Assembly (NCBI GenBank): GCA_000002435.2 | Contig: CM018793.1 | DNA length: 64,000 nucleotides | Source of the DNA: Giardia intestinalis | Lineage: Eukaryota | Strand: one strand, 5' to 3' | In this document: piece after piece, positions 3,001 to 62,629 of the stretch | How the letters are laid out: every line of letters begins with the position of its first letter | How positions within the stretch are numbered: position 1 is the stretch's first letter | Position numbers and translations under genes: made by a program | Notes under the pieces: generated by a model | Databases searched by the model: none | What the model was told of the DNA's origin: nothing | The model's input: only the letters and a program-made list of their open reading frames with translations

Positions 3001-3292
3001 CGACCTGTATGTTGTGAGAACTGTCGGTGCATGCCGTGCAGGTCTGGTCGGCAGGGTTGCAGGTCTGGCAGCCCGCCGCACAGCCTGCGCTAGGATTCTG
3101 TTCGCACCTGTTCTGTCCGGCGACCGGGCCGTATCCTCCCTCGCACTCGCACACCTTCTGGTTGGGGGCAGAGTTCGGCGGGCAATCTGCGGCACAGCTC
3201 TTCCCGTCGACCTGTATGTTGTGAGAACTGTCGGTGCATGCCGTGCAGGTCTGGTCGGCAGGGTTGCAGGTCTGGCAGCCCGCCGCACAGCT
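1..3292. repeat. Perfect tandem repeat array, 207-bp unit (69 codons), about 15.9 copies in the window, truncated by the window start; coding (see minus-strand CDS)
   Basis: The unit acctgttctgtccggcgacc... recurs at 1, 208, 415 and so on. The track's 65-aa ORFs recur every 207 bp with identical translations, so the copies are 100% identical. Identity is lost at about 3291 (cagcCTgcg becomes cagcTTgcc). Confidence 0.95.
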
Positions 3293-47000: not shown

Positions 47001-48339
47001 AATCAATGATTCTAAATATCTTATTCTGAAGCGCAATTAATAAAGGATCAAACTTAGAGCAAGAAAGAAGGCGGTCATGAGCATCCTGAAAGTGTGGCAC
47101 AGAGCAAGGAGGTAGACAGAAAAGCTCAACCCCATAAAGGGTTTTATGGGAAGGATCTACAAATAAGCGTGCGCCCTCTGCATGCTTTAGAGACAGTCTA
47201 GAATAGAAGCGCAAATGATCAAACCTATGGCGTGTATCAAGTCTGTTTGTTTCTAGAGCGTTCTCAACGATGCTTTTAGCAATAACGAACTTATACAATG
47301 AAGAAAGACCATGCAACTCGGCATCTTCTAGATCGTATTTCACTACCATTTCAGAATTTTCCTCGGACGTCTCAGAGGGCGCAAAAGTGAGTAAGCTTTT
47401 TGATATATAAACGCTTGGAACCATTATGTCCAATAGGTAACTGTTAGTGAGCGAGAACTGATCCTCCTGAAGATGTGCTAGTCCTGTTATTGAAGACTTT
47501 AATTCGTCAATGAATAGATGCTCGACACTATCAAGATCTAGCCCCTGGACAAACCCCTTACGCGATGAATACATTACTGTAAACCTTTCCCATTCCCTTT
47601 TAACTAGTACCTTAATCAAAGTAATAAGATGCTCATTTGGGCATACTCCATGCTTTAATACGGGATTCTGCTTAAAGAGGTGGTCGTTAGAGGTTGCAGG
47701 AAGGAGGTATCTGTTACGCCATGGAGTCGTAACTAACTTGTTAGAAGAGTCTGTGTCAAGACTGGAAGCATAAATATCGAGCTCAGGACTAGCCATAACT
47801 GCTTTAATCTCCTTATAGAATATGTTTCCAAGGATACTATTCAGGCTAGCATAACTATTCACGCGAACTAGGGCGAGTGGGGCAACCACTACTTCTCTCT
47901 TCATAAGCAGAACAGCTCGTCTGTATAGAAAATCAACATGGTATATCTGACACCACCTGTAATAGCCAGGCCGCACTAGTATATACCCAGGGCACCCTAA
48001 CTGCATTGGCACACAGTGAAACTGCAAACCATTAAAATTAATCCCTGTGGATATTTTGCTGCAGAAATCTTTTGCACATTGTGTGGTTAGGACTTCTATC
48101 AAATGGACTATTTCATTATGGCAAGAAGAAATTGGAAGTATTGTTGTTACTGCTTTAACTCGGTCTCCATTCTTGGCCTGAATTATGCTGCCTCCCATTG
48201 CTGTGTCGCGCTCGGTCTTCTGCAGCGAGCCTCCAAGAATCTGGGGAACCCGTAATGGTGTAGTGGATCTCTTCAACGACATTCCTTCGTGAAGACAATA
48301 AATATTTATCCTGTTTCTGGTTATCAAAGATAATTTCAT
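29077..48339 (-). CDS. Giant hypothetical protein, 6420 aa, single uninterrupted ORF; one Walker-A-like P-loop (GEAFSGKST) near residue 3540
   Basis: 19.3 kb with no stop in frame. ATG (cat) at 48337-39. Coding-like composition throughout. P-loop at plus-strand coordinates 37684-37710, minus strand. No dynein, midasin or other giant-family signature recognisable by eye. Confidence 0.7.
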   Translation of the reverse strand: MKLSLITRNRINIYCLHEGMSLKRSTTPLRVPQILGGSLQKTERDTAMGGSIIQAKNGDRVKAVTTILPISSCHNEIVHLIEVLTTQCAKDFCSKISTGINFNGLQFHCVPMQLGCPGYILVRPGYYRWCQIYHVDFLYRRAVLLMKREVVVAPLALVRVNSYASLNSILGNIFYKEIKAVMASPELDIYASSLDTDSSNKLVTTPWRNRYLLPATSNDHLFKQNPVLKHGVCPNEHLITLIKVLVKREWERFTVMYSSRKGFVQGLDLDSVEHLFIDELKSSITGLAHLQEDQFSLTNSYLLDIMVPSVYISKSLLTFAPSETSEENSEMVVKYDLEDAELHGLSSLYKFVIAKSIVENALETNRLDTRHRFDHLRFYSRLSLKHAEGARLFVDPSHKTLYGVELFCLPPCSVPHFQDAHDRLLSCSKFDPLLIALQNKIFRIIDYVLRLLTPLPDGTHEVEEDALVEIPHFIVSSLATEFFIDEELCTAIKTDLQILLDKRVTTILHNTSALSSQTKDTDSLTSNLRTANQKPALDVSESLELFLRRHLSILYETEATPEERGSLLMEPFSSFLPISNMAERYYLVRLYFVEKIIPLILSSTIVALLQSSLLNYVVDSIVPTCVSDSTFSIDFSTKIKQLRVKSLKEASETKSDRRDRLLASGLPLSVIHTALSILADGNQDLSSDAILMRAFDRIWPRFLRTLVEQIKTHIGNIFLQMHEMWSRNLLDSLLSVTGFPRLQFRTDSSMYAPFISSTLTIKNSSIGFTHQSTSVTGFAWLQQSLRELSFCLYTTESSISSINSLVLAPQLSFDPTSTEKTAIVYSRPLGNLLDRRTRSLLFLDKYSFEVPTARYICKALLSNVKQLAQTDSDDFAFTLTQDLLLSNPDQEVDQFFSSWLGLKQRQSNILIPLEPIVRPRMHLQLPPLCPSSRTEKPPQSSSTTAMHFSDVDNDPIYAKDTMDSPLVLTAFIAPSDTDVVVKKQIDTLFEALSIKLVELLSTCNNISSFYRAFELVVDSGLPNVSLDADDVKSVYSAPPEHLLKTQMPSETPDDETQSFDTSQVPNPYTSMGEDSMKVSPGFVRSLSAIETIARDYVSVILKGESPNENIVTLANSSGVDYLVLMVHISAELVRSIDQEILDAYAISSYVSTGSITVSLIDFKLSLISAFITVRQNITESISKIITQASSYMLRVLQLTESVLNITTLNLDKLSKILVVMEDHGLFVKQWTPVACYLCDFLGPISKLSNSYCLSTLYDIRNSITHTIPTVFGLSGSFDQNETTPRPHLALSQAQAPRPTEPSILSSNELHVALQAAAKLGWVNHAYKNARFNYKRHIRVFSRVLLVFSDWLSKVTGALYAISSEVLKMQLSDFQLAVTNPLQFRKMFPIFSKNIEIPYLETMYSNFEGNDLLLVTEVIKTLQAYTCIHISINSEVVNGFPILNTQLASQEDQPVTADKHTEHPSSLEPEHGALEFPCQFTEYHVGWQLPYQGYRWPYLYSRPCPDSVSEQSTRESAIQAPTSPLDYLLVTDCNFEFSERSDLFASRNSQGLIVASTYMHGHLCDNKESDIPVDHPSLAHYDVFRMFMELYILIEEIKNVYLRVSSWSRALNIDMHLVDSPAELEAVLLPLCLLVTSFVKLNQLYKAAPSKALIDLDAGALVTLLEICATSISTIRSSFVYSNWTSTADQVDCYLRAITPRLFLLCFLTSPDAIEEDLAGFGEVTGLNAFLRSAPTIHAAPIDTYFEPDRTILVEHLFLYDNTDAMFEAAAAIYARGLVNRQAMVTLNKIDDWINGLNFQPITLTASHRSGHLLSVLYAFWGITGKGEFSDHTIASKLGPVMGGKASSLTSLLQKVRTLILAKEKVLEAYSSRLGILADAADDSSLAQLSSFECISDDISVDEEAGRDDSLFAMQSLDRNKDLFAGSIVLASDVRTRSRAQSITGSLDLTTKQPNQHDHLTSKESLLGVPTLVCCKRHVEYIREAMFAVAYILFNDYSPSTQTVARRLEAELILLHTLAICVQRAMTILPELLLLLPDLCSISLGSAHPRLRKAFLSSQDPLLEVVSLLNIMRQLHSLCKESSEENACCLSGEITSLRGSPVQPSLLPTVGSFGLLRGIVRRCPYIIRSLSLHIARADSILGVFSDTILRFPLVSSFTSNLSLEYACIPCIPATYHAQGQHHVSDLIRRCPLIRSAVLYNNIYTSTSALVPSGKLRPIVFHTSSSAFSNSIYDIMTLRTGTGSSTRLQITGLCAGYEQLRFLKPIDMPDTLPAFGASVFAPSVHRAALIKEYLKGLRLLMEERYEELVGSCLYQCVHYALSTLVFMHLDGSPVNFLQLYYKCMPEFKRAVATVAIGTATVLTDKSLTSCYSLRNYKHDRRMYIQALLARIAEHERTLQTIMEDSLTLYIMRAIPNLSRAATAEKVASFISDEGQVRAAFTELYADAKSQACITAMSCGVHPNVHMHHIISTLPYGLPTESALTEASSSASCGELTDWRKDRVYTTHNQNFLSQKNDETLLVTCANVAIPIIAQYTGKASLLDCIPLNYRQLQAVSQLGISMQSRIPAFLVGDTMRSYNNIDYLIIVHTLCRYFGMRYEFVFCSPATDPDALLHRLCTRILGGRYVVLCGVEFLEESQLNGLINVLSSYNLAKGAVPTVEQADTGPLDFSILHSTGKDAIFPGGYAICLPEAVYEGSKLSLTIRGERLRKLFPMHSLIEIKDYGTLVPVSLLQQTNALLYDLCLEARASTNNVDLHSHKSKATEEQITNFFAEKNLSTEYRLSVSDDIPITALNFDALYPHCNCKHQTEANQLGHLFLQRSSQYGPKLYEISLFLNTAGLSTPQLRPEDVDLVLKRCKDMSNPISVATSLSAFLLSQTTLRPARDIVSRVIEGAFVLQPQHKAVLNSVVSLLNVLHGVQEPNDIDIGMLISRKTHHGTDSNFTANNIAKVWKTLKQMYTPTYAEFCETLSQEFALLEPVGIDALALCLDMLSLGPVVLLPPSTSVLQGTKGTGLTIPQLSNKSVTAQLVKSRALSSITLRQSHFQLLVVFSQLVAKVGKLRPFFIHSLADLHENIRTIMYLGSQALLIFIFNPPSGTLARSMLSSITALQSYYPELELYYNIRAKFDFFNKPRCLLLVTAYETASIIGSNVGSVQRRLIVVPEYLKFSTMLNNYVGRHLHLAEDEQLTEKSRKLFTVTSLIDMKTSALSIQYLQSLCSRRTTAELKGECLAEKRLRLGSKLFGAFITCLTDNLMRREFSIVPSHIVWTLYRQLLVLFLTSFRVLVLSPCHPEAYATFEPIPEVMNTQLYQLDSYLSLHTITSSTPLAKYDSYMQLQSAPRTAFFSVSFSVTYLQNFIYEALDNLSVIINLFLPIYAAVFNALHVLHVMYFKRPLNKLSKIYKKGLVECVYRPEKFVAHVMSMFADSAQLLNKSDLDDAMALLPDLFPEHYADEDDDLSAYSYLGVSDSDGSFLYFVASDKGRRLCVQHFPYMCSSGIFADASFERLFDQSTTPKHELTLTFDCERILFIVYLSSFIMAKLSVCLIGEAFSGKSTYIRAAEIFLGKYVWRECVALFDIDSFDEVLQKLISTCYLHNIQTARTQKTAIEANASHQDGSEAAHYSSSSKAKRARASSVIGCPLSILDVTEDNTLLDETKDINQSIILDVPSGKLPLYHLTVTNLLTSTIAHRVSDDALVARGAADEQRLSMLESLVASASEPQVAVQNDRLSMLLGEKYIIMENSERSPVCGLTGVTGARFSSGIFVPNISIVVESSYLYDFFLASELTFVLPPMNNTKEFLLLLLKRNFQHPSLSNLDSFAPKIAQAHVASAPQPRVSSVHTKNKYDCNLYVGVTEPEQEFLYEYSDSYLLQFIEGLLLVEYHLPVSILRVISEMKRLQKYIDSVDLDNIQLSAVTLGSLMGALRNIPAVKHSHVSCILDELASAVAIGRLAPHGPYGPLNPENMSKYLRTNTLISMSSHTGVQALPNWELRVLKAVFKRSFCNTGTSSSNISKAPGDIDGTLIDSQKFKSGSSIKRFHYSGDIELLNDGGKYKHFVDACARARQHYAKLLFYNPHNNSINRQVFEVHSSVVHECLLDAMDPTVCNRVFTLTIDISMLMEQNSLKVFYYIKYLRNPGLFSKLHSPADAKSMQALALRVPVFLMSQLEMSGTLYSSFLHALQTMGNYRISNRKTFLKVAQQTFSSDMEGFGIDADSQANSFSCSRSVTSLHQTISGRSLSECDGPLLAHAAKNFDLRAFLSITEEPTEIAIKRRQRILIDTQTMIQSLMHQTVGGSESDSEPEPNNITTSSLQSRPVTTTVASENLMIELTDALVSTLTAKSEAAASHYIIRAAVLIALGINPLIAFQDFTPTSSTYLCDRCSSTIPDYLLHYINRGSLEINAEEYTDLFLSTPTDIMVTIPMSLFNALLNKSPAIGILSIVESGSSLLSLFTNGEVRVLGALLAKYFCLTTMLSGKEIINILSRSFSLVVFADTSVDHPLPLQELPVIRHTIDENDRIHSLQVGTAENILQGSYKASETATPSLQLVRAIPYFILSNIPYNLDPKPFITQHEHSETPLHDAYSSMYCEIFCQTTLCIYKCCMQNVSHSIPYSLARFSEVASYYTNELIAKHLKTITFIQKILSSITLFDNGIRNGLFSPSIRNDIIYLRDQLVSIKLKVKLDFIRAVIMLQNACCDGPLIAARLLFYPFITSIWGNCVQFELGLFECLKNRKIMNNSLNTSYSDNSTVMLQSLFNLSTSDELIQRSDMLSNYGLPSRLLMLCEDLMWPRWRTQLTCSLCNPDPKLIQEIIILLQYIKFGFKFLFVTSDLARIIIPACEVYLLEARLEDCKQRLSAMGVNVEQALEKYNATGAINATIEDLVLGTQGSHGDTGKRPEKGVAQYNEMHYLIAELEDLLKQIASLKYSAVSYKRLPSNVRFGAPSTCYNYHEVRRKLLIYLDCHLPPPIFEALLKHALLQDKPIVFLNFGSAAMPMLNMMILTKLALLIESRLTKRNARVSVTTTYSVDIVRPLHDYRIYYVLTTGASLKFLLETGFINLRNCDMSTLNAPKFQFKSNSLNLLRMQNPSVTEHELQYKLREISEKFSSVYSLYVNGFDGLEIVRRESCLECSDRLHRNIENIANNLEKYILSKKEIMSRLVKREESNAVFVHLQHASKDSEGFDFAEMNLYCIGVERCIEHREELAKKIAESSTISEYAKYFGTAITSILLLLRQMSLIHPSIATVFTDHFFECHLSYLDDHVGSNPSRAFTAIVNTAHYILENTVLLLPERERGLYINLFISIYNLCFKLGHPDDLTQLKMILVNDIRFLVSHFSDKFNSHLPLYNYARQIAASCPTSFRCSPTVVYSWKLFSLLSIYNPRRFSDWYEYFTHNKAVFTLLNFAGDAYKMIVGTYLYKERTAQSSDKVKQAELGIAETSKSAIADAIDRTAGDDINLDATVAQEIEEGMRTLKTTHVPIVPPYVHDELAAYSTRLVPLPPSLQYPSFENIWVALLLIVALRQDLILSTMEFFCRITPPSAIHKFLQDDASLRAKAKADWCSANNEAELLSDGLLSRVASATAVAIDAGNLQAEGKETQTRAVGDADGPLDLSVINPANLDHVAQLFKNLQEEYNFEATQQVSLGRGSRTVLLYYDEGLAILPYLQAIFSKEIIPKYGFPDYVCQPAPATSYLATNVVIVDIRYNPHYSLAHLIDLYSSGVKPAYLVYVLVPLSCCQKFGTESGAATPENISVQLAVFIDICRPVQLYVQRPTTFLDAMQHAISTMRNYTLSHSVGCSVYESSFVKALTLLAIRYSMLISNGMFKVDDNEMLLLYVHLISQLKTLPLANQGRRLFFTKKQGAASHIANLPMIYSVLCHTCSEINTSYVLSNLYSLIYRKSSAILIGSPINASVSVAISYLNSKSLNVASFYEEVPTITHDQAEAERTDFDPSLTSIHNSDVEISNSRSVFSSAESSIDDVSMCSFKTDYTYADQRQVDGAPQATSARLMTLAGDELNANVLLNATDPDGFRSYSRAELQKILSSRRHMVTIHASSRMDALLHFPETMSERTLIDLVEKIKLITMDLEKFAMKHTNVAEIIRTQELQERLADTLQPICFLRPELSRCQSTVRDAFSLMLSTDVISNIASHSIHSNAYSSVEVDRAEKALPPTLYAVLLLSKTYQRVRRLTYGFTSNSLVEQSHPIKVLSENIWSVRGDIYQPIMHDILKLFKLQMCLKYNLEMGYYSIVFTLLDPTYYRDWFLRYDGQNCIQCSKIDNRRQKRKHTMPLATVRVTNMRLYGIGYDYMLNTIVDISPESLSYPNNCDIYAILVPCESSSSSMLPDSVKTRDSYLMMYEALSYSSSPPQSEEELAEIDQNFGVDHYYENTIQHVTIPVDFPGCWDLILQNKTSLKKSDIDAKSPYCGTGYF

Positions 48340-48340
48340 C

Positions 48341-48830
48341 AGTTGTACGGTGATTCACTCCACCCACCGGTTGCTTCCAGCGCTGTGCTGCCGGGCCGCC
48401 TGCAGGCACGATTCAAAAATCTCACGAGTAAATTCTCGTTCAAGCTCTGGCCAGTTCAGAGACGACTGTTGGTCATTGATAACATAATGAGAGAGTCCTC
48501 TCTAGTGATATATCCAGAGCCTGGCACATTCCTCTGCCATTTCATGAGCGTGTGCTCAATCCGGGTGTGCGCGTCGGTCTGCCCAGGATTCAGGCCTTCT
48601 CGCAGACCCTCTGCTCTACCGGTGGTGCCTCTCCTTGGCCTGCCGTCTGGTGGGTGAAGCTCGGGTTGCTGTCTTTTTTAGATGCTCCCATCTGTCAAGG
48701 GCTGCCACCGGGCTCTCCGCTGGCTGGGCCCTCGGTGCCCGTCCGGCTGTGGCTCGAGTCAGGGCTCCCACAGTCGCGGTCACCTGGGTCTCAGTGGGCC
48801 GGCTGGTGGGACCGGGTGGGGGGTGTTGTA
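48341..48830 (+). repeat. Arm A of an inverted repeat (VSP-3'-flank-like element, about 85% identical to arm B), abutting the start codon of the giant gene
   Basis: The reverse complement of 48345-48690 aligns with 50600-50870 and with 59031-59360. Shared blocks include ccaggattcaggccttctcgcagaccctctgctctaccggtgg and cttttttagatgc. Homology continues, with more decay, to about 48830 versus about 50420. Confidence 0.75.
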
Positions 48831-50419
48831 TGTGCCCTTGGTGTCAGTGGGTCAGTGGGGTGGTGGGTGATCTCCGCTCTGTTTGCCAAGGTGGTTGTGT
48901 CTGATCCCCAGCCTTCGTTGCACTCCAAGACACAGGCACCGACGATCGTGTCGTGTCCCCTGACTGAGCGCCTCCCTTGGCCCCTTGTCTCAGGCAGTAC
49001 TGCCTCTCTGACTGGCTGGTGCGTGAGTGTCGAGGCAGGCCATCGCAGCCCCTCCTGTTGCTCTGTGCGGGTCTGCTGGGCCCCTGGCATGCCCTGTCCA
49101 GTGCCTCGACGGTAGTTCACCTCGGCCAGCAGGGGTGTGGATGGCCTGTGGATGGGATGGGTTCTCTCGTGCCTCTAGTGTGATGGCCCAGAAGACTGGC
49201 ACAGTGGGGCACTGGTGACTGCACTGTCCCTGTGGTCAGCTGTGCTGCTCCTGGTGGGTCCTCGTTGTGGAGCGCTGTGTGTCGTCCGTAGGCAGAGGTG
49301 AGCCTCCTTGGTCTCAGGATGCTCTACCATGCAGAGAGGAGCACGCTGATGGTTACCCATACCTCACCTGCTGTGCCCGTTCGGGAGTTCCCGATGTGGT
49401 CTACTAGGATCTTGACCCCTCCTCGTGGCTCTGATGACCCCTCGGGGAGAGCCGGGGCATCCTATGCCGAGGGGCGTGCACCCTCCTGCATGAGCTGGGA
49501 CCCACTGCACTGCCTCCAAGGAGGTCTGCTATGAGAGGCAGTGAATGATTGACAGCCCCAGAGTGCGGTGGAGGGTGATCGTGGTCATCTCTGTGACCGG
49601 GCATCACTCTGATGGTCGGCTCTGTGCCTGTGTGGTGCTCATGGGCCACCTGTCTGCCTCATCGCCTGCTGGACAGCCGGCCTCTTGTGGCGTCCGAAGG
49701 CCTCCTCGCTCCTCTGGCTGCTGCCCCCTCAGGTCATCGTGAATGCAGTCGAGGCCAGCGAGTCTGGTGCCTGCCTGGGTGTCATGGGGGGCTGGCAGCT
49801 GTCAGGGCTCTGCCACTGCTCACCTGCCTGGAGTGTGCCTCCCTTGGGTCTGCTGTGCTGCGTGAGTCCTCTGGCTTCCTACCAGGCCCTGACTGTGAGG
49901 GTGACTCCACCTGGCCCTCTGATGCCCCTGTGGATGAGCATAGCAATGTGTCTGGCTAGGGATCTCTGGTGCCCGTGTCTGTCACTGCCTCTCGGGTGGC
50001 TGTCTGGGGCTCTCGCATGAGGTCTACAGTCAGCGTGTCCCGAGCAGACTCCAGTCCTCTCTGGGTCCACACAGTCTGTCCGTGTGTGGACGGTCCTCCT
50101 GCACTCATGTCCATCTGTGCACACTGTCACTCAGTCTCGAGAGCAGACCAGTGCAGTCGCCAGGGCTGCTGTCAGAGGGAGTCGTCTGTCACTACATCGC
50201 TCGAGCAGCCCATGCAGATCAGGCTGGTTGCTGTGCACCCTCATGGCAGGGCTGTTTGACTTCCCTTGGCTATCCTCTCTGTCCCGGTGTGCACGGCTCC
50301 TGAGGGTTGTCTGGGTGGAGGCACTCACAGATCACGAGCACACAGAGGGATGAGTCACAGATGGGCAGCCCCCAGTCACCACAGCTACGATCACCTCACT
50401 CACCAAGAGGTCAGGGGCA

Positions 50420-50870
50420 TATACAAGTACCCCCACCTCAGCCCCCACCAGCCCCACCAGCCTCACCGCCCCACCCACCAGCCGGCCCACTGAGACCCAG
50501 GTGACCGCGACTGTGGGAGCCCTGACTCGAGCCACAGCTGCCCGGACACCGAGGGCCCAGCCAGCGGAGAGCCCGGTGGCAGCCCCTGACAGACGGAGGC
50601 ATCTAAAAAAGACAGCGACCCGGGCCTCACCCACCACGAAGGAAGACCAAGGAGAGGCGCCACCGGTAGAGCAGAGGGTCTGCGAGAAGGCCTGAATCCT
50701 GGGCAGGCAGACGTGCACACACAGACTGAGCACACTTCCACAGAGCGACCGGGGAAGGTGCCAGGTTTTAGATATACTAATAAAGAGGACTCCCTAGTAT
50801 GTCGTCTACAACCAGCCATCGTCCTTGGACTGACCAGAACTTGAACGAGAATTTACTCGTGAGATCCTTG
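50420..50870 (-). repeat. Arm B of the inverted repeat, lying immediately downstream of the 3' UTR of the truncated VSP at 50941
   Basis: The 50607-50865 core is nearly identical to 59031-59290. It is inverted relative to arm A. It starts about 70 nt beyond the VSP poly(A) signal. Confidence 0.8.
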
Positions 50871-50925
50871 AATGCACCGCAGGCGGACCTATCAGCACAT
50901 CTACACAAGCTACGCACAGTAACGC

Positions 50926-50932
50926 GTTTACT
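50926..50932 (-). promoter_or_regulatory. Giardia polyadenylation signal AGTAAAC, 10 nt after the VSP stop (TAGACTTAGGTAGTAAAC)
   Basis: Matches the established Giardia AGTPuAAPy consensus. The context TAG-ACTTAGGT-AGTAAAC is the conserved VSP 3' end. Confidence 0.7.
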
Positions 50933-50940
50933 ACCTAAGT

Positions 50941-52668
50941 CTACGCCTTCCCTCTGCACACGAACCACCAGCAGAGGAACCCTATGAGGCCCCCCACGAC
51001 GACGACCACAGCGACGGAGATCCCCGCGATGGCCCCCGTGGAGAGCCCGCTCCTGTTGGCGCCAGAGGACACACACTTGCCATTGTCTAGACTGTATCCA
51101 TCAACACACTCCCCACATATATTGTCCATCACACAGCTCTTGCAGTCACTCACAGAGCACAGCACACACCCACTACCATCCTTGTTGGGCTTCTTACCAC
51201 TGTCACAGGAGGTGCACACAGCAGCAGCCATGCCAGCCCCAGTCAGAGCTGCTGGGGCTGTACACTGCGAACAGCCATCCACCCCCACATATGCCTTAGT
51301 ATCTACTAGTGTGCCTAGGGGGTTGCCACATGCCAATACAGACTGTTGAGCATTGGTTGCTTCTGGGACTACGAAGTACTTATTATTCTCACTAACAGCT
51401 GTACAGACCCCGTTGTTAGCTGTCTTGCACATATGACTACCGGGGGCCTTCGACACATCATAGCACCCTCCCATATAGAGGAAGTAGTTAGCAGCAGTAC
51501 ATGATGTACAGACACCATTGGCACATCCATTATTATTAGCCTTGTCACTAGCACAGAGACCATCAATTGGTACCTTACCACTATCTCCACAATAAGAACA
51601 ATAATGCTTTGTGGTGCCCTTATCATCTATTACGATGGCATCGCAGGCTCCAGATGTCCCCCCGCAGGCAGTATCATCTTCACAAGTCTTGGTGCATGTG
51701 AGGTCGCCAGGTTCTCCGCTGGGCCTGTAGTTGGGCTTACATTCAGTGCACTTGAAAGTATTGCCATCATTCGAGCAGACACTGCATCCATCGATGCCAC
51801 CTTTGGTTGTATCACTACATAGGACACACTCCTTTGTTCCCTGGGCATCCTTAAGGAAGTACCCCGGCATGCATTCAGTGCAGTCCTGTATGTTTCCCGT
51901 TGAGCCACACTTTGCGCAGTTTCCTGCACAGGGCTTGCAAGTGCTACTCAAGTAGAATCCAGGGAAGCATGCTTTACACACCGGCTTCTGAGAGGCTTCC
52001 TTGCTACACGTCTCGCAGTCTGCTATGCCCTGGTCGTTGCCAGACCCACTGCTATCACCGCACAGTATACACTTGGTATCTCCGTCACTTCGAAAGTGCG
52101 TCCCGTCCTGTCCGACAGTTGCGCACCCAGCAGCATCAACGCACGTTGTCGTCCCGTCGGCAGCAGTTCTTATCAGCTTCCCGTTACAATTGGTGCACTG
52201 AGGCTTCCCCGTAGCATCACTATATTCACATGCAGTGCAATCAGTTATGTCGGGATCACATGCCTTACAAGTCCAGGTCTTCTTGTCTGCGTACTGGGTT
52301 GCCTCGCATTGACCAGCATCTACACATTGATTATTCTTCAGGTACTTCCCATCCTCACACGTTGTGCACTGGCCTGCACCGGTGCAGTCTATGCATCCAG
52401 TAACGCACTTCTTACATGCTCCGTTATCTTTATAGTACCCAGCCTTGCATGTATCACATGTGGCAGCCGTTGGGGTGTTTGGTGCCATACATGTAGCGCA
52501 GCCCTCGACTCCCTTTGTCGTGCCATCTCCCACCGTGTCCCAGCAGAGGATGCACTCGCTACCAGGTTTCTGAGGTGTAACTGGGTTCTTGAACAGGCCG
52601 TTATCTGCCTTACAAGCAGTGCATACTCCGTTACTGGCCTGTGTGCATATCTCACTCCACTATCACCC
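50941..52668 (-). pseudogene. 5'-truncated VSP (variant-specific surface protein) lacking an ATG and signal peptide; VSP fragment or pseudogene
   Basis: C-terminus GGLIGFLCWWFVCRGKA-stop, GGCY motif (YFLYMGGCYDVSKAP) and many CXXC. The track start at 52533 is a GTG. The Cys-rich frame continues upstream to an in-frame stop at 52669-71 with no ATG or hydrophobic leader. The first in-frame ATG (CATCMAPNT) is not followed by a signal peptide. Confidence 0.6.
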
Positions 52669-52682
52669 TATCACTGTACAGC

Positions 52683-52689
52683 ATTCACT
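52683..52689 (-). promoter_or_regulatory. Giardia polyadenylation signal AGTGAAT downstream of the intact VSP (TAGACTTAGGTAGTGAAT)
   Basis: AGTPuAAPy consensus, 10 nt after the stop at 52698. Confidence 0.7.
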
Positions 52690-52697
52690 ACCTAAGT

Positions 52698-54462
52698 CTA
52701 CGCCTTCCCTCTGCACACGAACCACCAGCAGAGGAAGCCGACAAGCCCTCCGACGACGACAATCACAGCAACAGAGATCCCCGCGATGGTGCCTGTGCTG
52801 AGGCCGCTCTTGTTCATGCTGTCTCCTCCAGTGTCTCCGCCGGTGCCATCGTCAGTCTCTTGTCGCGTTATGTAGCAGATGACAGATCCTTGACCATTAG
52901 TTGGAGGAGCACAGCTTACGCAATTAGGCACACCAACTATTCCATTATCGCTATCAGCTGCACATTTGAAACACTTACCAGTACCAGTTCTATAATATCC
53001 AGAATAGCATTCAGTACAAACATCCGAATTGCTAGCCCCACACTTTGCACAGCCCTCAGAACATTCCGGACATTTTCCTCCGGCTGGGCTTTGTCCATTG
53101 GCTGCACATGTCTGACACTGTCCATTCTGAGCGCTACTGCATAATGTGTTACCTGGGTATGCTGTCGACTGATAGCACCCGCCAGACTGCAGGAAGTATG
53201 AACCTGTACAGGCCGTACATGTCCCGTCGTTTCCTGGCGTGCATCCCATGACTTCTCTTGTTGCTGTCGATACGCAAATACCATCTACTGGGGCGTATCC
53301 AGCCTTACACTTGCTGCAGTACTTCGAGCCCCCAACGACGGCCGTGCACTGCCCGTCTGCGCAGTTCTCTGCATACCTTCCCGTGCACTCTGGGATGCAT
53401 GTGCCGGTGGCTCCATCGTCGCCCTTGCTTAGCACATACCCAGGGTAGCAAGCCGTACACGACGTTTTTGCATTAGTACTACAGCTTGCGCATGACTCGT
53501 GGCAGGGGGTGCACACCTTGCTATTAGCATACATTCCAGCAGGGCAGGCATCTAAGCACGCATTCTTTTCTGGAGTGAGATACTTGTTTTGTTCACACGT
53601 CAAGCATGTGACCAAAGGGGTGGCTCTGGATCCTTGAGTGAGCAGACTGCACGTCGCACAATTAGCGATTCCACCATCTGGCGCACTATTACATGCAGCA
53701 CACTTGTTTCCCTGTTGTTCATCGACCTTTGGAAACGTAGCCGCTGTACATCCAGATGCTTCGACGCACGTGCCTGTGCTGCCACCGTCCACTTTCAGAT
53801 ATGTCTTAGTACCAGTTCCTTTACACTTACTACACTTGTTATTGCCTGTTACGGCACACGTAGCGCAATTCTCGTCTTGGCATGCTTCACAAGTGGGGCC
53901 AAAGAACCCGTCCTCACAGGTTGTGCACGTGGCAGGCACAGGATTAGTATCACTTGCTGCTGCTTTGGGTGCATCACACACTTTGCAGTGCAGCACGCCC
54001 TTGTACTTGTGGCTGTTTCCAACCAACACTTCTTCAACATCTCCACATGGTATGACCGATTGGTGTGCATTATCTCTATCTGCACCTGGTGGCACGAAGT
54101 ACCCAGCCTTAGCCTGCGTGCACACTCCAGCATTTGCTGTTTCACACATCGTGTTACCAGGCTCAGTAGCTTTTTTGTAGCATCCGCCTTTGTACATGAA
54201 GGATTCATGAGCACACTGTGTGCATACTCCGTTGTTCTTAGTACTGCACTCGTTGTTGTCTGCCGTGCACTTGCCGTCTGTCGGAGCAGATTGAGACCCA
54301 CTGTCATTGCACTGTGAACAGTACTTCTTGCCGTTGATGACGGCGCTACAGGTCTTGCAAGTGTTGGGGTCACTGCCAGTTACCTCTTCACATTCGTCTC
54401 CGGCTTGCGCTGCCCGTGCCATCTCGAGCATGAGGCCAATCAACAAAACTGCGTAGAACATT
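52698..54462 (-). CDS. Variant-specific surface protein (VSP), about 587 aa from the true ATG
   Basis: The track start at 54497 is a TTG. The real ATG (cat at 54460-62) gives the signal peptide MFYAVLLIGLMLEMARAAQA. The protein is Cys-rich with CXXC motifs, two GGCY motifs (FMYKGGCYKKATEP, YFLQSGGCYQSTAYP), a TM helix and the invariant CRGKA tail. Confidence 0.9.
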
Positions 54463-57400
54463 GTGGCTCGACGCTCTGTTACACAGGAATATAGCAACTT
54501 CGCTCGTCAGTCCGCCCCTTCGTGGCATCCGCCTGCGCTGCATGACGTATCGGCAGGGAAGGCCTCCACATGGGCCTGCACTGAGAGGTGGAGTTGTGCT
54601 GGTTCCGGTCTCATGGCCTGCCATCCCCGGGTCCCATGTAGCTAGCCGACCATGAAGATGGATCGATCAGTGCAGGCCCCTCCTCTGTGTTGCAAGGCGC
54701 ATCGCATGATAACTGCTACATGGCTGACCAATGCTTCGCTCTTCGCTGTGATGTGAGGGTCTCCTGGCGACCAGTTCTCCTGCTGTGCCAGTCACAAGGT
54801 CTGCCAAGGGACTCCTAGGTTCTCCTGGATGCCTGACCAGCGACCCGATGGAGCCGGCCGTGCGATGTCCAGCAGCCCGAGCCACGGGTCGTCACAAGCA
54901 GATGCCCCAGACACTGCTCGTCGAGGTCCTACGTTGAGGCCCGGCAGGAGCGATGCCCCGTGGAGGAGGGCTGCGTGTTCTATCGCGACTCACTACGACT
55001 GCCCCCTCTGCTTAGGGACACGCAACATGCCCGCCGCGAACGGATGGATGTCCGTCTGTCATACGACTTAACCTGGTTGCACCGCAGACCGTCGATAAGC
55101 CTGCCCCCTGTCGACTCCTATGCCACTGAAGGGCTCTGCCGGCCGATCGTCTTTAAAGACTGTCCCTCGCCGGTCGCAGGCCCATCTAGGAACCGGTGCC
55201 CGTCCGTCCTCATCTGGGATGGTCCCACTGGGGTGGACACGCCTTCGGGTACGCAGTGATGTGCCAGCACCCTTAGAACTGGTAGTCCCGCTCGCCTAAC
55301 CGGCTCCAGCCAACATACCACAGCGTCTCTCACACGAGGGCTACCCCGCGCACCGGAGAAGAGGTGATACCGGACAGCCAGCGCTATCTGGGCTGCCACA
55401 CTCCCTGCTAGCCAAGGGATAGTGGAGCCGTAGACGAACTGGGCCGTTGTCGTCCCTCTGGTTGGGGGTGCCCAGGTCCTGGAGCCATTGCCAAGAGTGA
55501 TCAGCTGGGTAATGTACACAGCGTGGCCACCGCTGCCAGGGGACACTCTTATGCTTGAAAGTCTACCAGCGAGACTTGGCCCGGTTGGCTGGTCAGAGAA
55601 CGGACTGTGTGCTGGTCAACTGGACTGAAGATTGATGATAGTGCTATATGGACAGCAAGCTAGGAAAGTCAGTGCCTTCTAGATTTCGTGTCACATTGAA
55701 CAACCCGCCGTACGAGATGCCTTAGACGATCAGCTGACTTTACAAAGTACTTTGGAGTACCAACAACTGTGTGGAGATGAGACAGTGAGAGAGCCTTAAA
55801 GCAGCTCGCGAGCAGAGAGGCTGGTGTGCACAGCAATGTGATCCATTAAGTCTCTGTTGGGTGCACAAGAAATGCTCGAATGTAGTAAACTGGTTGGCGC
55901 CTCTTATAGCAGGCAAGGGCTTCTATCCGCGCTGTGCAGTCGTGGGATGCACCTTGTAGACTTGAGGTGGACATCTACAAACACCGTGACTTGGAATGTA
56001 ATTGACAAAGTGCTTGAGGTCTAACTTGAGTGGGCAAGAGCTGATTGTGTCACCTCGGTTGGCAAGTATGTCCAACTGCGTAATGCGTGTAGTCGTCCCC
56101 TGGTGAGGGTGGATGGCCATCTACAGAGCACTATAAAGCTAATCGTGTGGATTGTGGGAGCATCATCCGGTGGCTCGTCTACTGCGGAAAGACGCAACTG
56201 AGGAACTGCTGAGTAGCAAACACGCTGACTGATATTGGTGTGCACCGTATACCTCTACAATAGGGTCTTGCGCCACGTACGGAGAGGAAACGAGCTCCCT
56301 CGACTTCGGAACAGTTGAGTATCCAGAAGCCTCTGCCTCGCTACAAATGCACAAAATCAAATCAGCCTCAAGTCGTCTGCAGACTCCACGATCTTTCCAC
56401 GTTTGGAGGCCAGAGGGACTCACGTGTGTCCTTATTGCAAATGGGTCTATACCTAGTCATCCTATTACAGAGTGGGCTCCCTGGCTTTCTCCATCTTCTT
56501 TGTCCAAATTTGCTTCCCGAGGATCTTTGTACACGAGTAGCCTTCTGTGTACCCAAATAACATCCTTCTTTGTTGAGGCGCTTCACCAAGGACTAGATAC
56601 CACTAGGTCATGCGGACAAAGGCAAACCTTTTCGCAGGTCCGTCTAAAACCAGCCACGGGCATCCAGACAAGTGTATAGATGCTTATCAAGTGGACTGTG
56701 ATACAGGCCAGTTATCGCATGAGGTTCACAGCAGTTGGTGTACAGAGTTCTGTTTTTAGCCATAAGTGTGGAGCCCATGTCTCACCTTGAAAGACGGCAG
56801 AGCGCTTTGTAGGACCTTCCGGGTATATAGTTATTGCTATAACTGATGGAGAAGCAGGTACGAAGACACGATGCTTACACAGAAGCACCTCTGGTGCTAT
56901 CTTCCACTGATAACAGATAGCTCAGACAGGCGGTGTACGCTCTATCATCAGACCTTATACGGCGTGTGTGCATTATTAGAGAAGCTTCTGTAATCTCTGC
57001 TCAGTCTGCTGGGCAGGCACAGCCCAAGTGCAACGAAGACGGTGGTGGAGGCAGCCACCGGCGCAGGGCAGTGGGGCGTGTGGCTCGGTGCAGTGTTCTG
57101 TAGTTAGACACCTCGGCCCTCTGAGACGAGAACAACACGCTGTCTGCACATGCGACTGCCTTTTCATGCTGCTTACTCCTATGAGCAGTTGCGATGCATC
57201 GTATGCCAGAGAGCGGGGCAGAGGGTCCCCAGACTATTGGACCAGCAGGCTAGACTGACAAGAACAGTTGACCATGCGTGCAGAAGCTCTGTCCTGGGGG
57301 CGGCGGGTGCAACGGCTGCCTCAAGTCTTTTAGCCGGGGTGGAGCTGTCCCCTGCTACCTGAGTGGTCTCTCATGCGAGCCATCGCCACCCTGGGCAAGC

Positions 57401-59030
57401 CCCTCGCTCGTTCACCAACCGAGATCCAGATCCAGAGTTCGAAGGTGAGTGTCAAGCGACTCCGGCGGGAGAAGAACTCTTGTTCTGCCCTCTTCCCAAG
57501 GACGAGGCAGGACAACCACGATCAGGGGACGATCATGATGCGCTCCACAAGGCAGTCCCGAGTCCCCTGGAGACCCAGACACTGGTCTTCCTTGAGACCT
57601 AGCAGACTGCGTTCCACTGGATGTACATGGGCGGCATTTGCATGGCGCAGGGAGGCGCAGACTGATGGAACACAGCGGTCTTGCTCGACATAGCGAACAT
57701 TCCAACAGTAGACGGCCTCTGCCAGGCGAGTGTGCCCTGCCCCGAGGAGCTGCGTCGAGGCCTTCCTCCGGCTGCGACGCGCTGCACTCCTGGACTTGGT
57801 CCCTCGGGGTTGAGCATGCTTCTGTGCTGCGGGGGACAGAACCTGCTCATCGGAAGCTGAGGAGATGCCCCGCTCACTGCCCATGCCGACGACAGCGACG
57901 CGACGAGGCAGTCACAGAGGCGACAGGCCCGGCGAAGCAACATGGCTCGACGGTCAGCACTGACAAGTATAGGAGCACAGAGTAGCAGGGGGCCCCCTTC
58001 CTGGCCGGTCTCAAGGAGCCCCCAAGGCAACCGAGGGCCGAAGCCAGTGATGGCACTAATCACTCGCCCCGCTTGTCGAGATGGACCCACACGTGACCTA
58101 TGTGAATCCCTCGACAAGAGATGAGGCCCTTGGGGTGCTTGGCTGACAGAGGCGGATTGATCCTGCCTGCACCGGAGAGTGGTGGCGGCCTGGGCCACTT
58201 GCCGGGGGTCTGCCACAGCAGCTGGTAATGCCTTGACATCCTCGAGTAGACGGGTGCCGATTGTAGAGAGACGGCCTCGGTGAACCGGTCCTGACCGCTC
58301 CTGGTGCCTCAGACGACGCCTCGACAGACCGAAGCACCACCCCAAGTGTGCTGTGCGGTGCAGATGGACCAGCCCACACGTCACTGAGCCAGATGCACTG
58401 CACAGGGTGGGCGTCGACGCGGTCTCGTGCTGGGTGACGGACCACCTGCAAGAGCGCCCTGCGATCCATGAGCAGAGGGCCATACTTCTCCCCGACACAA
58501 CACATGGGAGTACTCCATCGACATCCACGAATGCGTACCACAACCTCAAGATAGAGGGACACGGGGAAAGCGCCCTCCGATCATACTCGGGACTGATGGT
58601 GCCCTCCACGAGGAGACGAAGAGGCACCCGAGGAACGGGGTAGACATCCGAGGTATGGCGTGCGATCTTCGTTATGAAGCACCAGCACCACAAAGCGACC
58701 CTGGAGTACATGGCCAGAGTTAACTGCTCTCGAGACTGGATCGCCGCGACTGACGCAAGGCCAGAGACAACGGGTGCTCACTAGTGCCAGACGGTGGCTG
58801 GCCCCGACAGGCCAGAGCGGAGAGACGCCCCGGAGCGCATAGTGGAGCACCCAACGGCTCCCCGGGCGAGGAGGCACAAGGCTCTTCTCCAGAGTGGACG
58901 GCATCTAAGCTTCGGATCCTGGATTTGGATCTTAGCTAATGCATGAGTGGGAGGCCTGCCCAGAGTGGCAGTGACTCACGTGGGAGACCACTCAGATAGC
59001 AGATGAGAGTAAATTAGGGGACCTTATTGA

Positions 59031-59360
59031 AAAAGAAACAGCGACCCGAGCTTCATCCACCACGAAGGAAGACCAAGGAGAGGCGCCACCGGTAGAGCAG
59101 AGGGTCTGCGAGAAGGCCTGAATCCTGGGCAGGCAGACGTGCACACACAGACTGAGCACACTTCCACAGAGCGACCGGGGAAGGTGCCAGGTTTTAGATA
59201 TACTAATAAAGAGGACTCCCTAGTATGTCGTCTACAACCAGCCATCGTCCTTGGACTGACCAGAACTTGAACGAGAATTTACTCGTGAGATTTTTGGATC
59301 GTGCCTGCAGGCGGCCCGGCAGCACAGCGCTGGAAGCAACCGGTGGGTGGAGTGAATCAC
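59031..59360 (-). repeat. Third copy (C) of the VSP-3'-flank-like repeat, in the same orientation as arm B, with no adjacent VSP coding sequence
   Basis: 59031-59290 is nearly base-for-base identical to 50607-50865. 59291-59360 matches the segment of arm A that abuts the giant-gene ATG (ccggtgggtggagtgaatcac). Confidence 0.8.
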
Positions 59361-60454
59361 TAATAATACTTTAGACATATCACCGTGCACCAGTCAGCCT
59401 AAAGCTTAATAAAGTCTTGACCTCCTGCATGCTTGCTACCTCTTTTTCTATACCCATAGGTGTGTATTTACGAATAGCGCCGCTCTGAACGTATGCAGTA
59501 GCCAGGTATCTCACCAAACTAACGATTGCGGGAATAGAGGGCTGGAACTGGATCTTCATCTGATAAAGTTGCAACATGGAAACACACAATCTTCGAACGC
59601 TGAACAGAATGGAGCAAGACAATCCACGTCAGTATATAGTATAGGGGCATTCTTAACGTTATAGTGGTTATGAGTATAACATCTTTAATAGAGAGAGCAG
59701 GACTATGAGAGATTACGGTTCAGACAACCGTGAAAGGTATACAGGAATCCATGTGCGGGCGCTCTAAGTGTCTTAAGAGGATTCAGTGGAAGCAGCAATT
59801 GGTACTATTGTTAAAAACAACGGCCAGTTGCATTCCCCGATTCTGGACCTCTACATAAGACTGGTAAAACCTATCCCCCTGTGCTCCACGTGATAACTTT
59901 AGAAAGTGGCACTGGGATTGAAGGACATGATTGAAGAGCCTTTTTAACCAGAAGCACCCCAGGATCCTCTCTAGTGTCCGACCCTTTGAAGTTTCACGAG
60001 CATTACGGGCACTCTGCGCCAAGGCCCACAAGACGATGTTGCTCCATGACAACCGGCGTGGGTTATTAAGAGATACTGGGAGAGCACAGCACAGATCACT
60101 GGGGTGACCATCGATTGACAGTGTGACAAAATCAGTAGTTACAGGTGTCACAGGATCACAAGCGTCAGCATCCAGTGGGGCTCATAGGTACCTTTTTCCT
60201 CATGTTCAGGCAGAATCGTTACGAAGAGCATTGGAGTCTCGCAGAGGCCGTATTGCTGTGATGAAATGCTAATTACGCGATATATGACAGTCGGCATACT
60301 TCCTGCCTAACCATGGACCGAGACATTATTTTCTGAGATAGAGGGTTATGGTACTTTAGACTAATTAGTTTAGACTCGTTAGTGAAGTTTTCAATAAAAA
60401 AGAATATCTTTATTGGGAGCGTTCGCTACCATCAGTGAAAGCTAAAAACATAGG

Positions 60455-62629
60455 ATGGCTTATATTAGAATGCTGTTATTGACTTTCTACTTCATAGTGA
60501 ATAGTTTCGCAGCGCCTTGCCAACAGAAGGGGTATCACATGGTAACATGCAAACCGAATAGCTGTGAAAGAGTTGGTGTCATAGAGATTTGTGTTCAGTG
60601 TAGGGCAGGAGGGGTTCCTATCAATGGACAATGCTCTCTATTCGACACTTCTTATGTTGCTGAAGCGAGATGTACCAAAAGTGATGGTACCGCTTTGACA
60701 AGTTCCGATACTACCTGCGGAAAGTGCGGCGGTGAGTACTTTCTCTTCATGGGAGGGTGTTATGGCATAAAGTATAGACCTGGCAATGAGATATGCACTA
60801 GGGCTGATGATGGAAAGTGTACCACTTGTAATACAGGAAATAGTGGTAAATACGTATTTAAGAATGGAGACCCTAATGCTGCGCCGGGAACAGAATGCAT
60901 TCTGTGCCATGATACGATGGGAGCAAATGGATATACAGGAGTAGCAAACTGTGCAGAGTGTAGCCATGCAGGAACTAGTTCTGGTGCTGCTACCTGTGGA
61001 AAATGCCAGACAGAATACTTTAAGAGTGGAGATACATGTACACCATGTGGAGCTGATTGTTGGATTTGTGAATCTACAGCTAAGTGCACAGTGTGCAAAT
61101 ATGGAAAATATATAAAAGAAAATGGTAATGATAGAACTTGTGTAGACACTAGTGGATGTGGTACTGGTAACTATGCAGATATAAGAACAAACGAGTGCAA
61201 GCCGTGCACGGACACAAGTGTCAATGAATGTGCTACGTGTACATACAGTGACACCCTCAGGAAGCCCGTATGCACTGGGTGTAATAGTGGAGGAGCCAAG
61301 CCTCTCCTTAAGGTGGACCTCGATGGGTCAGCGACGTGCGTTGCGGAGGGAGAGTGTGCAAGTGGCAATACGCACTTCCTTGAACAATCTCCAAAGGCTT
61401 GTGTCCCGTGTGGTGATGCTAAGAATGGTGGGATTCTAGGTTGTAGCACTTGCTCCTCTAAAACTACATGTACAAAGTGCCTCGATGGATATTACAATAG
61501 TGGAAATGGTGGTACGGTTACATGCACAGCTTGCGGTGCCAACTGTGCTACATGCTCTGCTGCTGGCAATGATCAGTGCACTAAATGCAAGCCTGGATTC
61601 TTCATGAAACAACCCGGCTCTGCTGGTAAGTGCTTCGCCTGCGACAGTAAAGCCGACAATGGCATCGAGGGGTGCTCCCAATGTAACAGCGGCCTAACCC
61701 CTACATGCACCGATTGCAAGTCCAACTATCGCAAGGAGGGAACCAATCCGGTGAAGTGCACAAAGGCCTGCGAGGACCCCACGGCCTGCGGGGGGACGTC
61801 TGGGGCCTGCGGGGCGGTCGTCGTTGACAGCGCCGGGGCGTTCTCCCAGTACTGCTCGCTGTGCGGAGACCCCGCCACATTCCCCATCGATGGCGTTTGC
61901 ACAGGGGATAAGGGCGGGAATACCTGTGCCAATGGCGTCTGCACCCGGTGTGCTGCCGGGTTCTTCCTCTTCATGGGCGGCTGCTATGATGTGTCGAAGG
62001 CTCCTGGCAGTCACATGTGCAAGAGCGCCGAGGGAGGGAGGTGCACCGTCCCTGGTGAGAGTGGTCGATACTTCATAGTCCCTGGAGCATCCAGCACTGA
62101 TCAGTCTGTCCTGACATGTAGTAACCCAGTAGGCACACTGACAGGTACTGGTAGTACCGCTAAGGCATATGTGGGGGTATATGGCTGTTCGGCATGCACA
62201 ACCCCAGTAGCTCCGTCTGATGGTGGTATGACTGCTGCTGTGTGTACAGCGTGTAACAACAACAATAAGCCCAACCTGGCTGGCAGTGAGTGCCTCACAT
62301 GTACCGTTAGTGGATGCTCGCACTGCAACAGGGATGACATGTGCTCCGCCTGCACAGAGGGGGGCAAGAGGCCGAACATAGACGGCTCCCAGTGCATCCC
62401 CTGCAATATCGACGGGTGCGTCAGGTGCAGCGAGGAGAACAAGTGCGGCCAGTGCGGGGGTGACTACAAGCTGGAGGGTGAGGCGTGCATATTCACCAAG
62501 CCCAGCGGGGGCAACAGGAGCGGACTCAACAAAGAGGCCATAGCCGGCATCGCTGTTGCTGTCATCATCGTCGTCGGGGGCCTCGTCGGTTTCCTCTGCT
62601 GGTGGTTCATATATAGAGGGAGAAAGTAA
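60455..62629 (+). CDS. VSP-like high-cysteine membrane protein with a non-canonical cytoplasmic tail (YRGRK instead of CRGKA)
   Basis: ATG at 60455 after an AT-rich leader. Signal peptide MAYIRMLLLTFYFIVNSFAAP. GGCY motifs (FLFMGGCYGIKY, FFLFMGGCYDVSKAP). The C-terminal about 230 aa are paralogous to the truncated VSP at 50941. TM helix GGLVGFLCWWFIYRGRK-stop. AGTAAAC (62625-62631) overlaps the TAA stop. Confidence 0.85.
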   Translation: MAYIRMLLLTFYFIVNSFAAPCQQKGYHMVTCKPNSCERVGVIEICVQCRAGGVPINGQCSLFDTSYVAEARCTKSDGTALTSSDTTCGKCGGEYFLFMGGCYGIKYRPGNEICTRADDGKCTTCNTGNSGKYVFKNGDPNAAPGTECILCHDTMGANGYTGVANCAECSHAGTSSGAATCGKCQTEYFKSGDTCTPCGADCWICESTAKCTVCKYGKYIKENGNDRTCVDTSGCGTGNYADIRTNECKPCTDTSVNECATCTYSDTLRKPVCTGCNSGGAKPLLKVDLDGSATCVAEGECASGNTHFLEQSPKACVPCGDAKNGGILGCSTCSSKTTCTKCLDGYYNSGNGGTVTCTACGANCATCSAAGNDQCTKCKPGFFMKQPGSAGKCFACDSKADNGIEGCSQCNSGLTPTCTDCKSNYRKEGTNPVKCTKACEDPTACGGTSGACGAVVVDSAGAFSQYCSLCGDPATFPIDGVCTGDKGGNTCANGVCTRCAAGFFLFMGGCYDVSKAPGSHMCKSAEGGRCTVPGESGRYFIVPGASSTDQSVLTCSNPVGTLTGTGSTAKAYVGVYGCSACTTPVAPSDGGMTAAVCTACNNNNKPNLAGSECLTCTVSGCSHCNRDDMCSACTEGGKRPNIDGSQCIPCNIDGCVRCSEENKCGQCGGDYKLEGEACIFTKPSGGNRSGLNKEAIAGIAVAVIIVVGGLVGFLCWWFIYRGRK

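Follow-up and report, generated by a model that had tools for sequence, protein, structure and literature searches.

A headless VSP cassette behind an intact VSP gene in Giardia intestinalis WB begins at a boundary shared by dozens of VSP pseudogenes

How does a gene for a variant-specific surface protein (VSP) that lacks its entire beginning come to lie directly behind a complete one? This question is raised by a pair of VSP genes on chromosome 5 of Giardia intestinalis WB, which stand head to tail on the minus strand of a 64,000-nucleotide stretch (contig CM018793.1 of assembly GCA_000002435.2, hereafter called the window). An earlier note on this DNA had described a tandem pair whose second member is headless, and reading the minus strand and its translation confirmed this arrangement. 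The pair is the two-gene linear array vsp49-vsp50, and we consider it very probable that its second gene (hereafter the cassette) belongs to a large family of headless Clade I cassettes and arrived here already truncated.

For this very locus, the feature has been recorded and interpreted in earlier publications. The intact VSP is 100% identical to WB XP_001708033.1/KAE8305263.1, which is GL50803_0041472 or vsp49, and a text search found the cassette sequence verbatim in the tables of a preprint (bioRxiv 10.1101/2022.03.07.483299) as GL50803_00137710 on NC_051860.1. In Additional file 1 of Adam et al. 2010 (BMC Genomics 11:424, PMC2996952), vsp49 is entered as GL50803_41472, Clade II, linear array (LA), chromosome 5, with the initiator CAATGTT and a length of 587 aa, and the row directly after it holds vsp50 (GL50803_137710, Clade I, LA, chromosome 5, initiator ‘No’, 515 aa). 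At that time vsp50 was counted among the ‘complete’ vsp genes. It is re-annotated as a pseudogene in UU_WB_2.1, and Table S7 of the preprint lists it as a ‘pVSP’ of 1719 nt (ORF N, inner stop codons N), in an entry that opens with tggagtgagatatgcacacagg / tggagtgagatatgc. The same preprint classes it as a type I Cys-rich pseudogene with CRGKA in frame 1 and a VSP-type extended poly(A) signal. What is added here is that the cassette begins at a fixed boundary common to dozens of WB pVSPs. No mention of a fixed 5′ boundary was found in passages of PMC2996952 or by a text search for GTGATAG.

As described in PMC2996952, linear arrays hold more than half of the WB vsp genes, with gaps that range from overlapping to 241 bp (mean 60 bp). 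The rule given there is that the initiator and the upstream non-coding region belong to the first member, and that downstream members carry no initiator and may lack an ATG. The pair in the window follows this rule, in that the two genes lie on the same strand, head to tail and with a short gap, and the initiator CAATGTT is present in vsp49 only, the cassette having neither an initiator nor a usable ATG. Moreover, the downstream member is not transcribed by itself, according to the published RNA-seq values discussed below. The next Cys-rich gene lies about 6 kb off, and tblastn found no VSP-like sequence in the interval that separates it from the array. The authors of the 2010 study proposed that downstream copies of this kind are unexpressed and represent either recombination cassettes or discarded remains.

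Nothing is missing from the first member, GL50803_0041472: it is an expressible VSP that has both an initiator and a signal peptide and ends in a poly(A) signal of its own. It belongs to Clade II, occupies 52698-54461 (minus strand; 587 aa plus stop) and matches the Pfam VSP family PF03302 with 310 bits, where the cut-off is 31.4 bits. Its ATG (54461-54459) sits in the start context CAATGTT (54457-54463), which equals the PyAatgTT initiator recorded for vsp49 by Adam et al. 2010 in Additional file 1. The reading frame opens with the signal peptide MFYAVLLIGLMLEMARAAQA and closes with CRGKA and a TAG at 52700-52698. The end at 52698 given in the earlier note is correct, and its start is moved by one base, from 54462 to 54461. 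Directly behind the gene lies the extended VSP poly(A) signal ACTTAGGTAGTGAATGC (52681-52697, with AGTGAAT at 52689-52683), which is the Table S6 entry for GL50803_0041472 and fits the consensus ACUUAGRUAGURAAYRY reported in the preprint.

The array spacer TGTACAGTGATAGGGTGATAG follows, comprising 21 nt of GTGATAG-type repeats (52660-52680, minus strand) that align with the spacers at junctions in two independent ENA contigs, L005 and L007. Its last six bases are two stop codons in the frame of the downstream cassette, TGA at 52665-52663 and TAG at 52662-52660, such that 35 nt separate the vsp49 TAG from the first in-frame stop and 38 nt separate it from the open frame. These coordinates replace those of the earlier note, which had placed a stop at 52669-71, only about 12 nt from AGTGAAT; the first stop in fact lies 17 nt past the last base of that element.

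The cassette itself is a Clade I pVSP of 572 codons plus stop (50941-52659, minus strand; 1719 nt) that matches PF03302 with 124 bits. Its open VSP frame runs from 52659 to 50944, begins WSEICTQASNGVCT / WSEICTQASNGVCTACKADNG, and carries 70 Cys residues, 26 CXXC motifs and a GGCY at 51471-51460, as in a VSP ectodomain. At the base composition of this DNA, the chance of an open frame of 572 codons is about 3e-13, and the two remaining frames of this strand are interrupted by 19 and 58 stops. The C-terminus (50944-51033) is conserved, and consists of the transmembrane segment AIAGISVAVVVVVGGLIGFLCWWFV (51033-50959) and CRGKA (50958-50944), followed by a TAG stop at 50943-50941. The extended poly(A) signal ACTTAGGTAGTAAACGC comes next (50924-50940, with AGTAAAC at 50932-50926), and is listed in Table S6 for GL50803_00137710. 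Thus the transmembrane domain, CRGKA tail and extended signal ACTTAGRTAGTRAAYRY that mark the end of a VSP are all present, and the complete C-terminus that the earlier note had read from GGCY to AGTAAAC is borne out. The cassette also retains every one of the 68 Cys columns found in eight or more of nine relatives.

By contrast with this intact body, the cassette is without a promoter or initiator, a usable start codon and a signal peptide. Its open frame starts with WSEICT where a VSP would have an N-terminal signal peptide. The first in-frame ATG (52486-52488, minus strand; MAPNTPTAATC...) is the start of the old gene model, as the ORF from position 52488 has exactly the 515 aa of the 2010 catalogue, yet its context is ACATGTATGGCACC instead of PyAatgTT and no signal peptide follows it. 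A hydrophobic stretch is lacking behind all six in-frame Met residues (10-residue Kyte-Doolittle means reach no more than 1.15, versus 2.59 for the intact neighbour), and the 38-nt gap upstream of the open frame encodes no leader in any of the three frames. Alignment with full-length relatives indicates that about 105 N-terminal residues are missing, comprising the signal peptide and the first Cys module through the first GGCY. When tblastn was run with the first 105 residues from each of nine full-length relatives, no N-terminal module was found beside the cassette; strong matches were confined to an HCMP gene at 60470-60784, and weak ones fell at internal GGCY modules. The absence of an ATG start and of a signal peptide, as claimed in the earlier note, therefore stood up to a search for an upstream leader or an alternative in-frame start, and the truncation likewise survived the search for a restored full-length N-terminus.

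Published expression values are consistent with this anatomy. They come from Table S9 of the preprint, which reports strand-specific RNA-seq (unique mappers, seven libraries); we rely on these values rather than on a mapping of our own. Sense TPM (transcripts per million) values for GL50803_00137710 are 0.26, 0, 0.39, 0.27, 0.37, 0 and 0.63, and because none of these exceeds 0.63, we regard the cassette as silent in the sense direction, with no evident read-through from the upstream VSP in these clones. The predicted silence was thus upheld for the sense strand, and the read-through transcription that had been suggested as a possibility left no sign. The upstream gene GL50803_0041472 has a logCPM of 5.4 in the same study. 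Antisense TPM values for the cassette are higher (8.1, 29.0, 17.3, 19.6, 72.5, 20.3 and 6.9); however, antisense predominance is reported in the preprint for most VSPs, and therefore this signal is not special to the cassette locus. The suggestion in the earlier note that such a copy could donate sequence or supply RNA for silencing is a hypothesis that PMC2996952 had put forward in 2010. No small-RNA evidence specific to the locus was found, including in the small-RNA paper PMC2817412.

The same 5′ limit is encountered at many other loci. The opening 18-mer TGGAGTG[A/T]GATATGCACA occurs at least 95 times in the WB pseudogene table (Table S7), a figure that is a lower bound and counts occurrences of a string rather than curated cassettes. 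The strings tggagtgagatatgcaca and tggagtgtgatatgcaca are found there at least 48 and at least 47 times, respectively, and among the matches listed, every row with either string starts with it; these rows derive from chromosome 4, chromosome 5 and unplaced scaffolds. The spacer string AATGCTGTACAGTGATAG, with at least 15 occurrences in the same table, also opens WB pVSP entries. About 190 pVSPs are reported for WB, so that by this string count (at least 95 of about 190) the fixed boundary would cover roughly half of them.

Comparable junctions are observed outside of this table. The proteins closest to the cassette are headless too, and WB entries among them begin MLYSDSDS...LFFMGGCY, which is a translated 3′ untranslated region (UTR) plus spacer (AATG CTG TAC AGT GAT AG...) that runs into a truncated VSP. 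Two successive junctions in L007 match the window column for column, beginning at the poly(A) signal and continuing across the spacer, and the junctions of both the window and L007 resume the VSP body at AG(T/G)G(A/T)GATATGCACA. In L005, a poly(A) signal and several GTGATAGNGG repeats precede a cassette that starts just before LLFIGGCY. Since WSEICT is also present within full-length VSPs (...GGCYKTSQWSEICT...), VSP homology has its exact start at 52659, with the spacer immediately before it.

The relatives of the cassette point in the same direction. The cassette and vsp49 are only 37-40% identical and belong to different clades (I and II), and therefore they are not recent duplicates of each other. 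Their 143-nt 3′ ends are 84% identical (50915-51057 versus 52672-52814). A search for the full-length parent of the cassette, which the earlier note had proposed to locate by alignment, yielded no such parent; the closest protein reaches 67% identity and lacks an N-terminus as well. Likewise, no recent exchange within the window was detected when it was compared with itself by blastn, where the body of the cassette reached a DNA similarity of only about 70%, to the HCMP gene, in addition to the conserved 3′ end. On the strength of these sequence comparisons, the truncation is a trait of the family and was probably not made at this locus. The proposal that the pair reflects unequal recombination or segmental duplication within the VSP repertoire therefore holds as a general idea, and fails as a description of a local footprint, given a boundary that recurs at least 95 times, the junctions in L007 and the 37-40% identity of the two genes.

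We propose the following account of the array. Units of the family all begin at one codon, TGG AGT GAG ATA TGC (WSEIC), which in a full-length VSP lies about 105 residues from the N-terminus, and ahead of each stands the 3′ UTR and stop-rich GTGATAG spacer of whichever VSP is upstream. Most economically, a single founding event, or a few of them, would have produced a headless unit composed of body, conserved 3′ end, UTR and spacer, which later multiplied and spread. One such unit, already truncated, would have come to lie behind a Clade II VSP to which it is unrelated. It probably arrived there by homologous recombination, as unequal crossover or conversion, through the approximately 140 bp of 3′ end and UTR that are common to all VSPs. 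The cassette presumably yields no protein, and any role it has would be as template DNA from which gene conversion carries segments into expressible VSPs; such use is possible, but we hold it only tentatively.

Several points weigh against this account. The recombination route is drawn purely from anatomy. The shared boundary could have come from recurrent microhomology events between the spacer GTGATAG and the coding sequence GTGAGATA, and not from common descent. The count of 95 refers to strings, as stated above. The RNA-seq data derive from a few clones in which vsp49 is not the dominant VSP, and silence without read-through applies to those clones. With regard to the template role in particular, no tract of the cassette is at least 95% identical to any catalogued VSP protein, and some members of the family carry internal stops (inner_stop_codons = Y in Table S7).

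Other explanations for the headless gene must be weighed against the dispersed-unit account. If the pair is viewed in isolation, the simplest idea is that a complete second VSP lost its 5′ end and promoter through a local deletion, which fused it to the upstream 3′ UTR, possibly by way of GG / GTGA microhomology at the junction. This reading of the locus as a local scar is disfavoured because the same boundary and spacer recur in other loci and in independent contigs, and the nearest relatives of the cassette are headless as well; we regard it as improbable. Even less credit can be given to the idea that translation starts at the internal ATG at 52488, as in the old 515-aa model, and makes the cassette a short but functional VSP. 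It is true that the ORF is unbroken and has a transmembrane domain, a CRGKA tail and a poly(A) signal, and that the gene ranked as ‘complete’ in 2010. However, neither a PyAatgTT initiator nor a signal peptide is associated with any in-frame Met, sense TPM does not rise above 0.63, and UU_WB_2.1 treats the gene as a pseudogene.

Target-primed reverse transcription typically leaves copies that are truncated at the 5′ end and complete at the 3′ end, and the cassette has this form. It might accordingly be viewed as a 5′-truncated VSP cDNA that was inserted by a LINE-like element. No A-run is present past 50924, where the sequence after the signal runs GCGTTACTGTGCG, and the junction homology spans the spacer, and thus extends beyond the cleavage sites reported 16-38 nt past the coding region (bioRxiv 10.1101/2022.03.07.483299). 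For these two reasons retroposition is very unlikely, about as much so as the short VSP. In addition, the cassettes form head-to-tail DNA arrays, and a repeat search reported no direct repeats flanking the cassette, save for the conserved VSP 3′ end, so that nothing resembling a target-site duplication was found. The least probable explanation is a collapsed or chimeric assembly of VSP repeats. Arrays of VSP genes are indeed hard to assemble, and another VSP in the window was collapsed in the 2007 assembly (two copies of a 207-bp repeat then, 15.9 now). Nevertheless, the pair is present both in the 2010 catalogue, which was based on an earlier assembly, and in the chromosome-scale assembly, and equivalent junctions occur in unrelated contigs.

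If the cassette is indeed a dispersed unit of this family, it can further be asked whether selection maintains it as part of a donor library, which is kept intact for piecewise copying into expressed VSPs and gives rise to mosaic antigens in the manner of Trypanosoma brucei VSG genes or Giardia muris pseudo-VSP arrays. This hypothesis is stated in PMC2996952 and PMC7641422. In its favour are the 572 open codons with their chance of about 3e-13, the retention of all 68 conserved Cys columns, and dN/dS values of 0.23-0.29 (about 0.26) against relatives in L005, L006 and L007, two of which are headless; these ratios are suggestive only, as dS is about 1.1-1.2 and hence near saturation. Furthermore, the best-matching VSP shifts along the sequence when scored in windows of 50 residues against catalogued VSP proteins. 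Residues 176-275, for example, are 82-86% identical to an assemblage E protein and 52-66% identical to the next-ranked ones, a pattern that fits an old mosaic history.

On the other side, none of these 50-residue windows reaches 95% identity, and hence no recent conversion tract to a known VSP is apparent. Other cassettes of the family have internal stops, and VSP switching in G. intestinalis is called epigenetic rather than recombinational in PMC2996952. The constraint may also predate the truncation, or conversion may run into the cassette and not out of it; the Cys and dN/dS data are compatible with a donor library and equally so with either of these alternatives. We therefore view a maintained library as a tentative possibility that is more doubtful than not. 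More speculative still is the broader idea that about half of the WB pVSPs copy one founder cassette with the fixed boundary TGGAGTG[A/T]GATATGCACA after a GTGATAG spacer, and owe their open frames and full sets of cysteines to service as a modular donor library for the approximately 136 expressible VSPs. If this idea were true, exchange would be directly testable in vsp49-vsp50, as a minimal combination of an expression gene and a single donor.

The locus alone is of little weight, being an annotated pseudogene whose class, arrangement and proposed role have been in print since 2010. Its value lies instead in its convenience as a test case, as the pair is unique-mapping, has two members only, resides on a fully assembled chromosome and includes an intact expressible first gene. 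The general question that it could help to address is whether headless VSP cassettes feed expressed antigen genes. A positive answer would mean that epigenetic switching is accompanied by recombinational diversification.

Some additional observations concern cassettes of other types. At a second junction in L005 (1880-2150), no more than the final 70 codons of a VSP come after the poly(A) signal and spacer. The 264-nt pVSPs WB GL50803_0040022/0040023 (Table S7, chromosome 5) are of the same short type, with the last 70-87 codons (GCKSCV...CRGKA), and represent a third recurrent cassette size. A number of Giardia duodenalis ‘partial’ VSP models (P0045, P0065-P0069, P0071, P0075, P0078-P0083, P0090, P0092, P0095, P0096, P0104, P0106) begin with a non-Met V at VNDPAGV(S/P)IDSLCRP..., about 53 residues before the first GGCY, and MDDPAGV or MNGPAGV opens a small number of ENA or M-start relatives. 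This common VNDPAGV start suggests a second family of headless cassettes with a different fixed boundary. A distinct situation is seen in L006 (7900-8060), where the called gene for the VSP homologue P0002 opens with GTG, and an in-frame, leader-like sequence FLLIPLFAVSTIA with no ATG lies upstream. This VSP may have been inactivated by loss of its start codon, and not by truncation.

Other features of the window lie near the array or elsewhere in the region. The 3′ flank of the cassette is formed by a repeated element of about 430 bp (50474-50899, minus strand; blastn of the window against itself), which has an inverted copy at 48384-48810 (84%, 1.66 kb away) and a direct copy at 59031-59326 (95%, 8.4 kb away). 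The inverted copies raised the candidate of a tail-to-tail inverted VSP pair, which was rejected. Mirrored 3′ flanks do exist, but tblastn found no VSP-like sequence past the second arm, where a 6420-aa ORF starts at 48339. The VSP-like gene at 60455-62629 (plus strand) is 100% identical to WB KAE8305264.1 and corresponds to GL50803_0010659, HCMP Group 1 / CRMP. It has a full signal peptide and N-terminal module, and a YRGRK tail instead of CRGKA; it shares GGCYDVSKAPGSHMCK with the headless cassette, and the two are about 70% identical in DNA over 370 nt. At the other end of the window (1-3295, minus strand), the VSP GL50803_00112693 (vsp51) has its N-terminus near 3330 and runs off the window start. 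It carries 15.9 copies of a 207-bp tandem repeat (99% identity, 64% GC) that encodes 69-aa Cys-rich repeats. The 2010 catalogue gave it two repeat copies and 258 aa, and therefore the earlier assembly had collapsed this array. GC content is 52-58% in the VSP-bearing segment and its non-coding surroundings (48000-60000) and 42-49% in the housekeeping core (4000-48000), with a sharp boundary near 48.3 kb. A search of 47500-60500 with Rfam at the gathering threshold gave no match.

Among known systems, the closest is that of the WB vsp linear arrays described in PMC2996952, of which this is the very same locus, with nothing different in kind: the gap is short, the initiator is in the first member only and the 3′ end is conserved. 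Similarly, the cassette is a listed member of the pVSP class as defined by the UU_WB_2.1 annotation and the preprint (bioRxiv 10.1101/2022.03.07.483299), and shows no difference from it. The pseudo-VSP arrays of Giardia muris (Xu et al. 2020, PMC7641422) are also tandem, devoid of signal peptides and not transcribed, and have been proposed to serve as conversion reservoirs. However, those arrays comprise more than three genes, are mostly telomere-adjacent and have a GCRGK tail, whereas here one cassette with CRGKA stands behind an intact VSP near housekeeping genes. An analogy drawn in PMC7641422 extends to the VSG pseudogene arrays of T. brucei, which consist of promoterless, often incomplete antigen copies with conserved ends usable for homologous recombination, and mosaic VSG formation in that organism is the subject of PMC13233330. 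In T. brucei, copying from the archive into the expression site has been demonstrated; in G. intestinalis, by contrast, switching is described as epigenetic in PMC2996952, with no pVSP conversion shown there.

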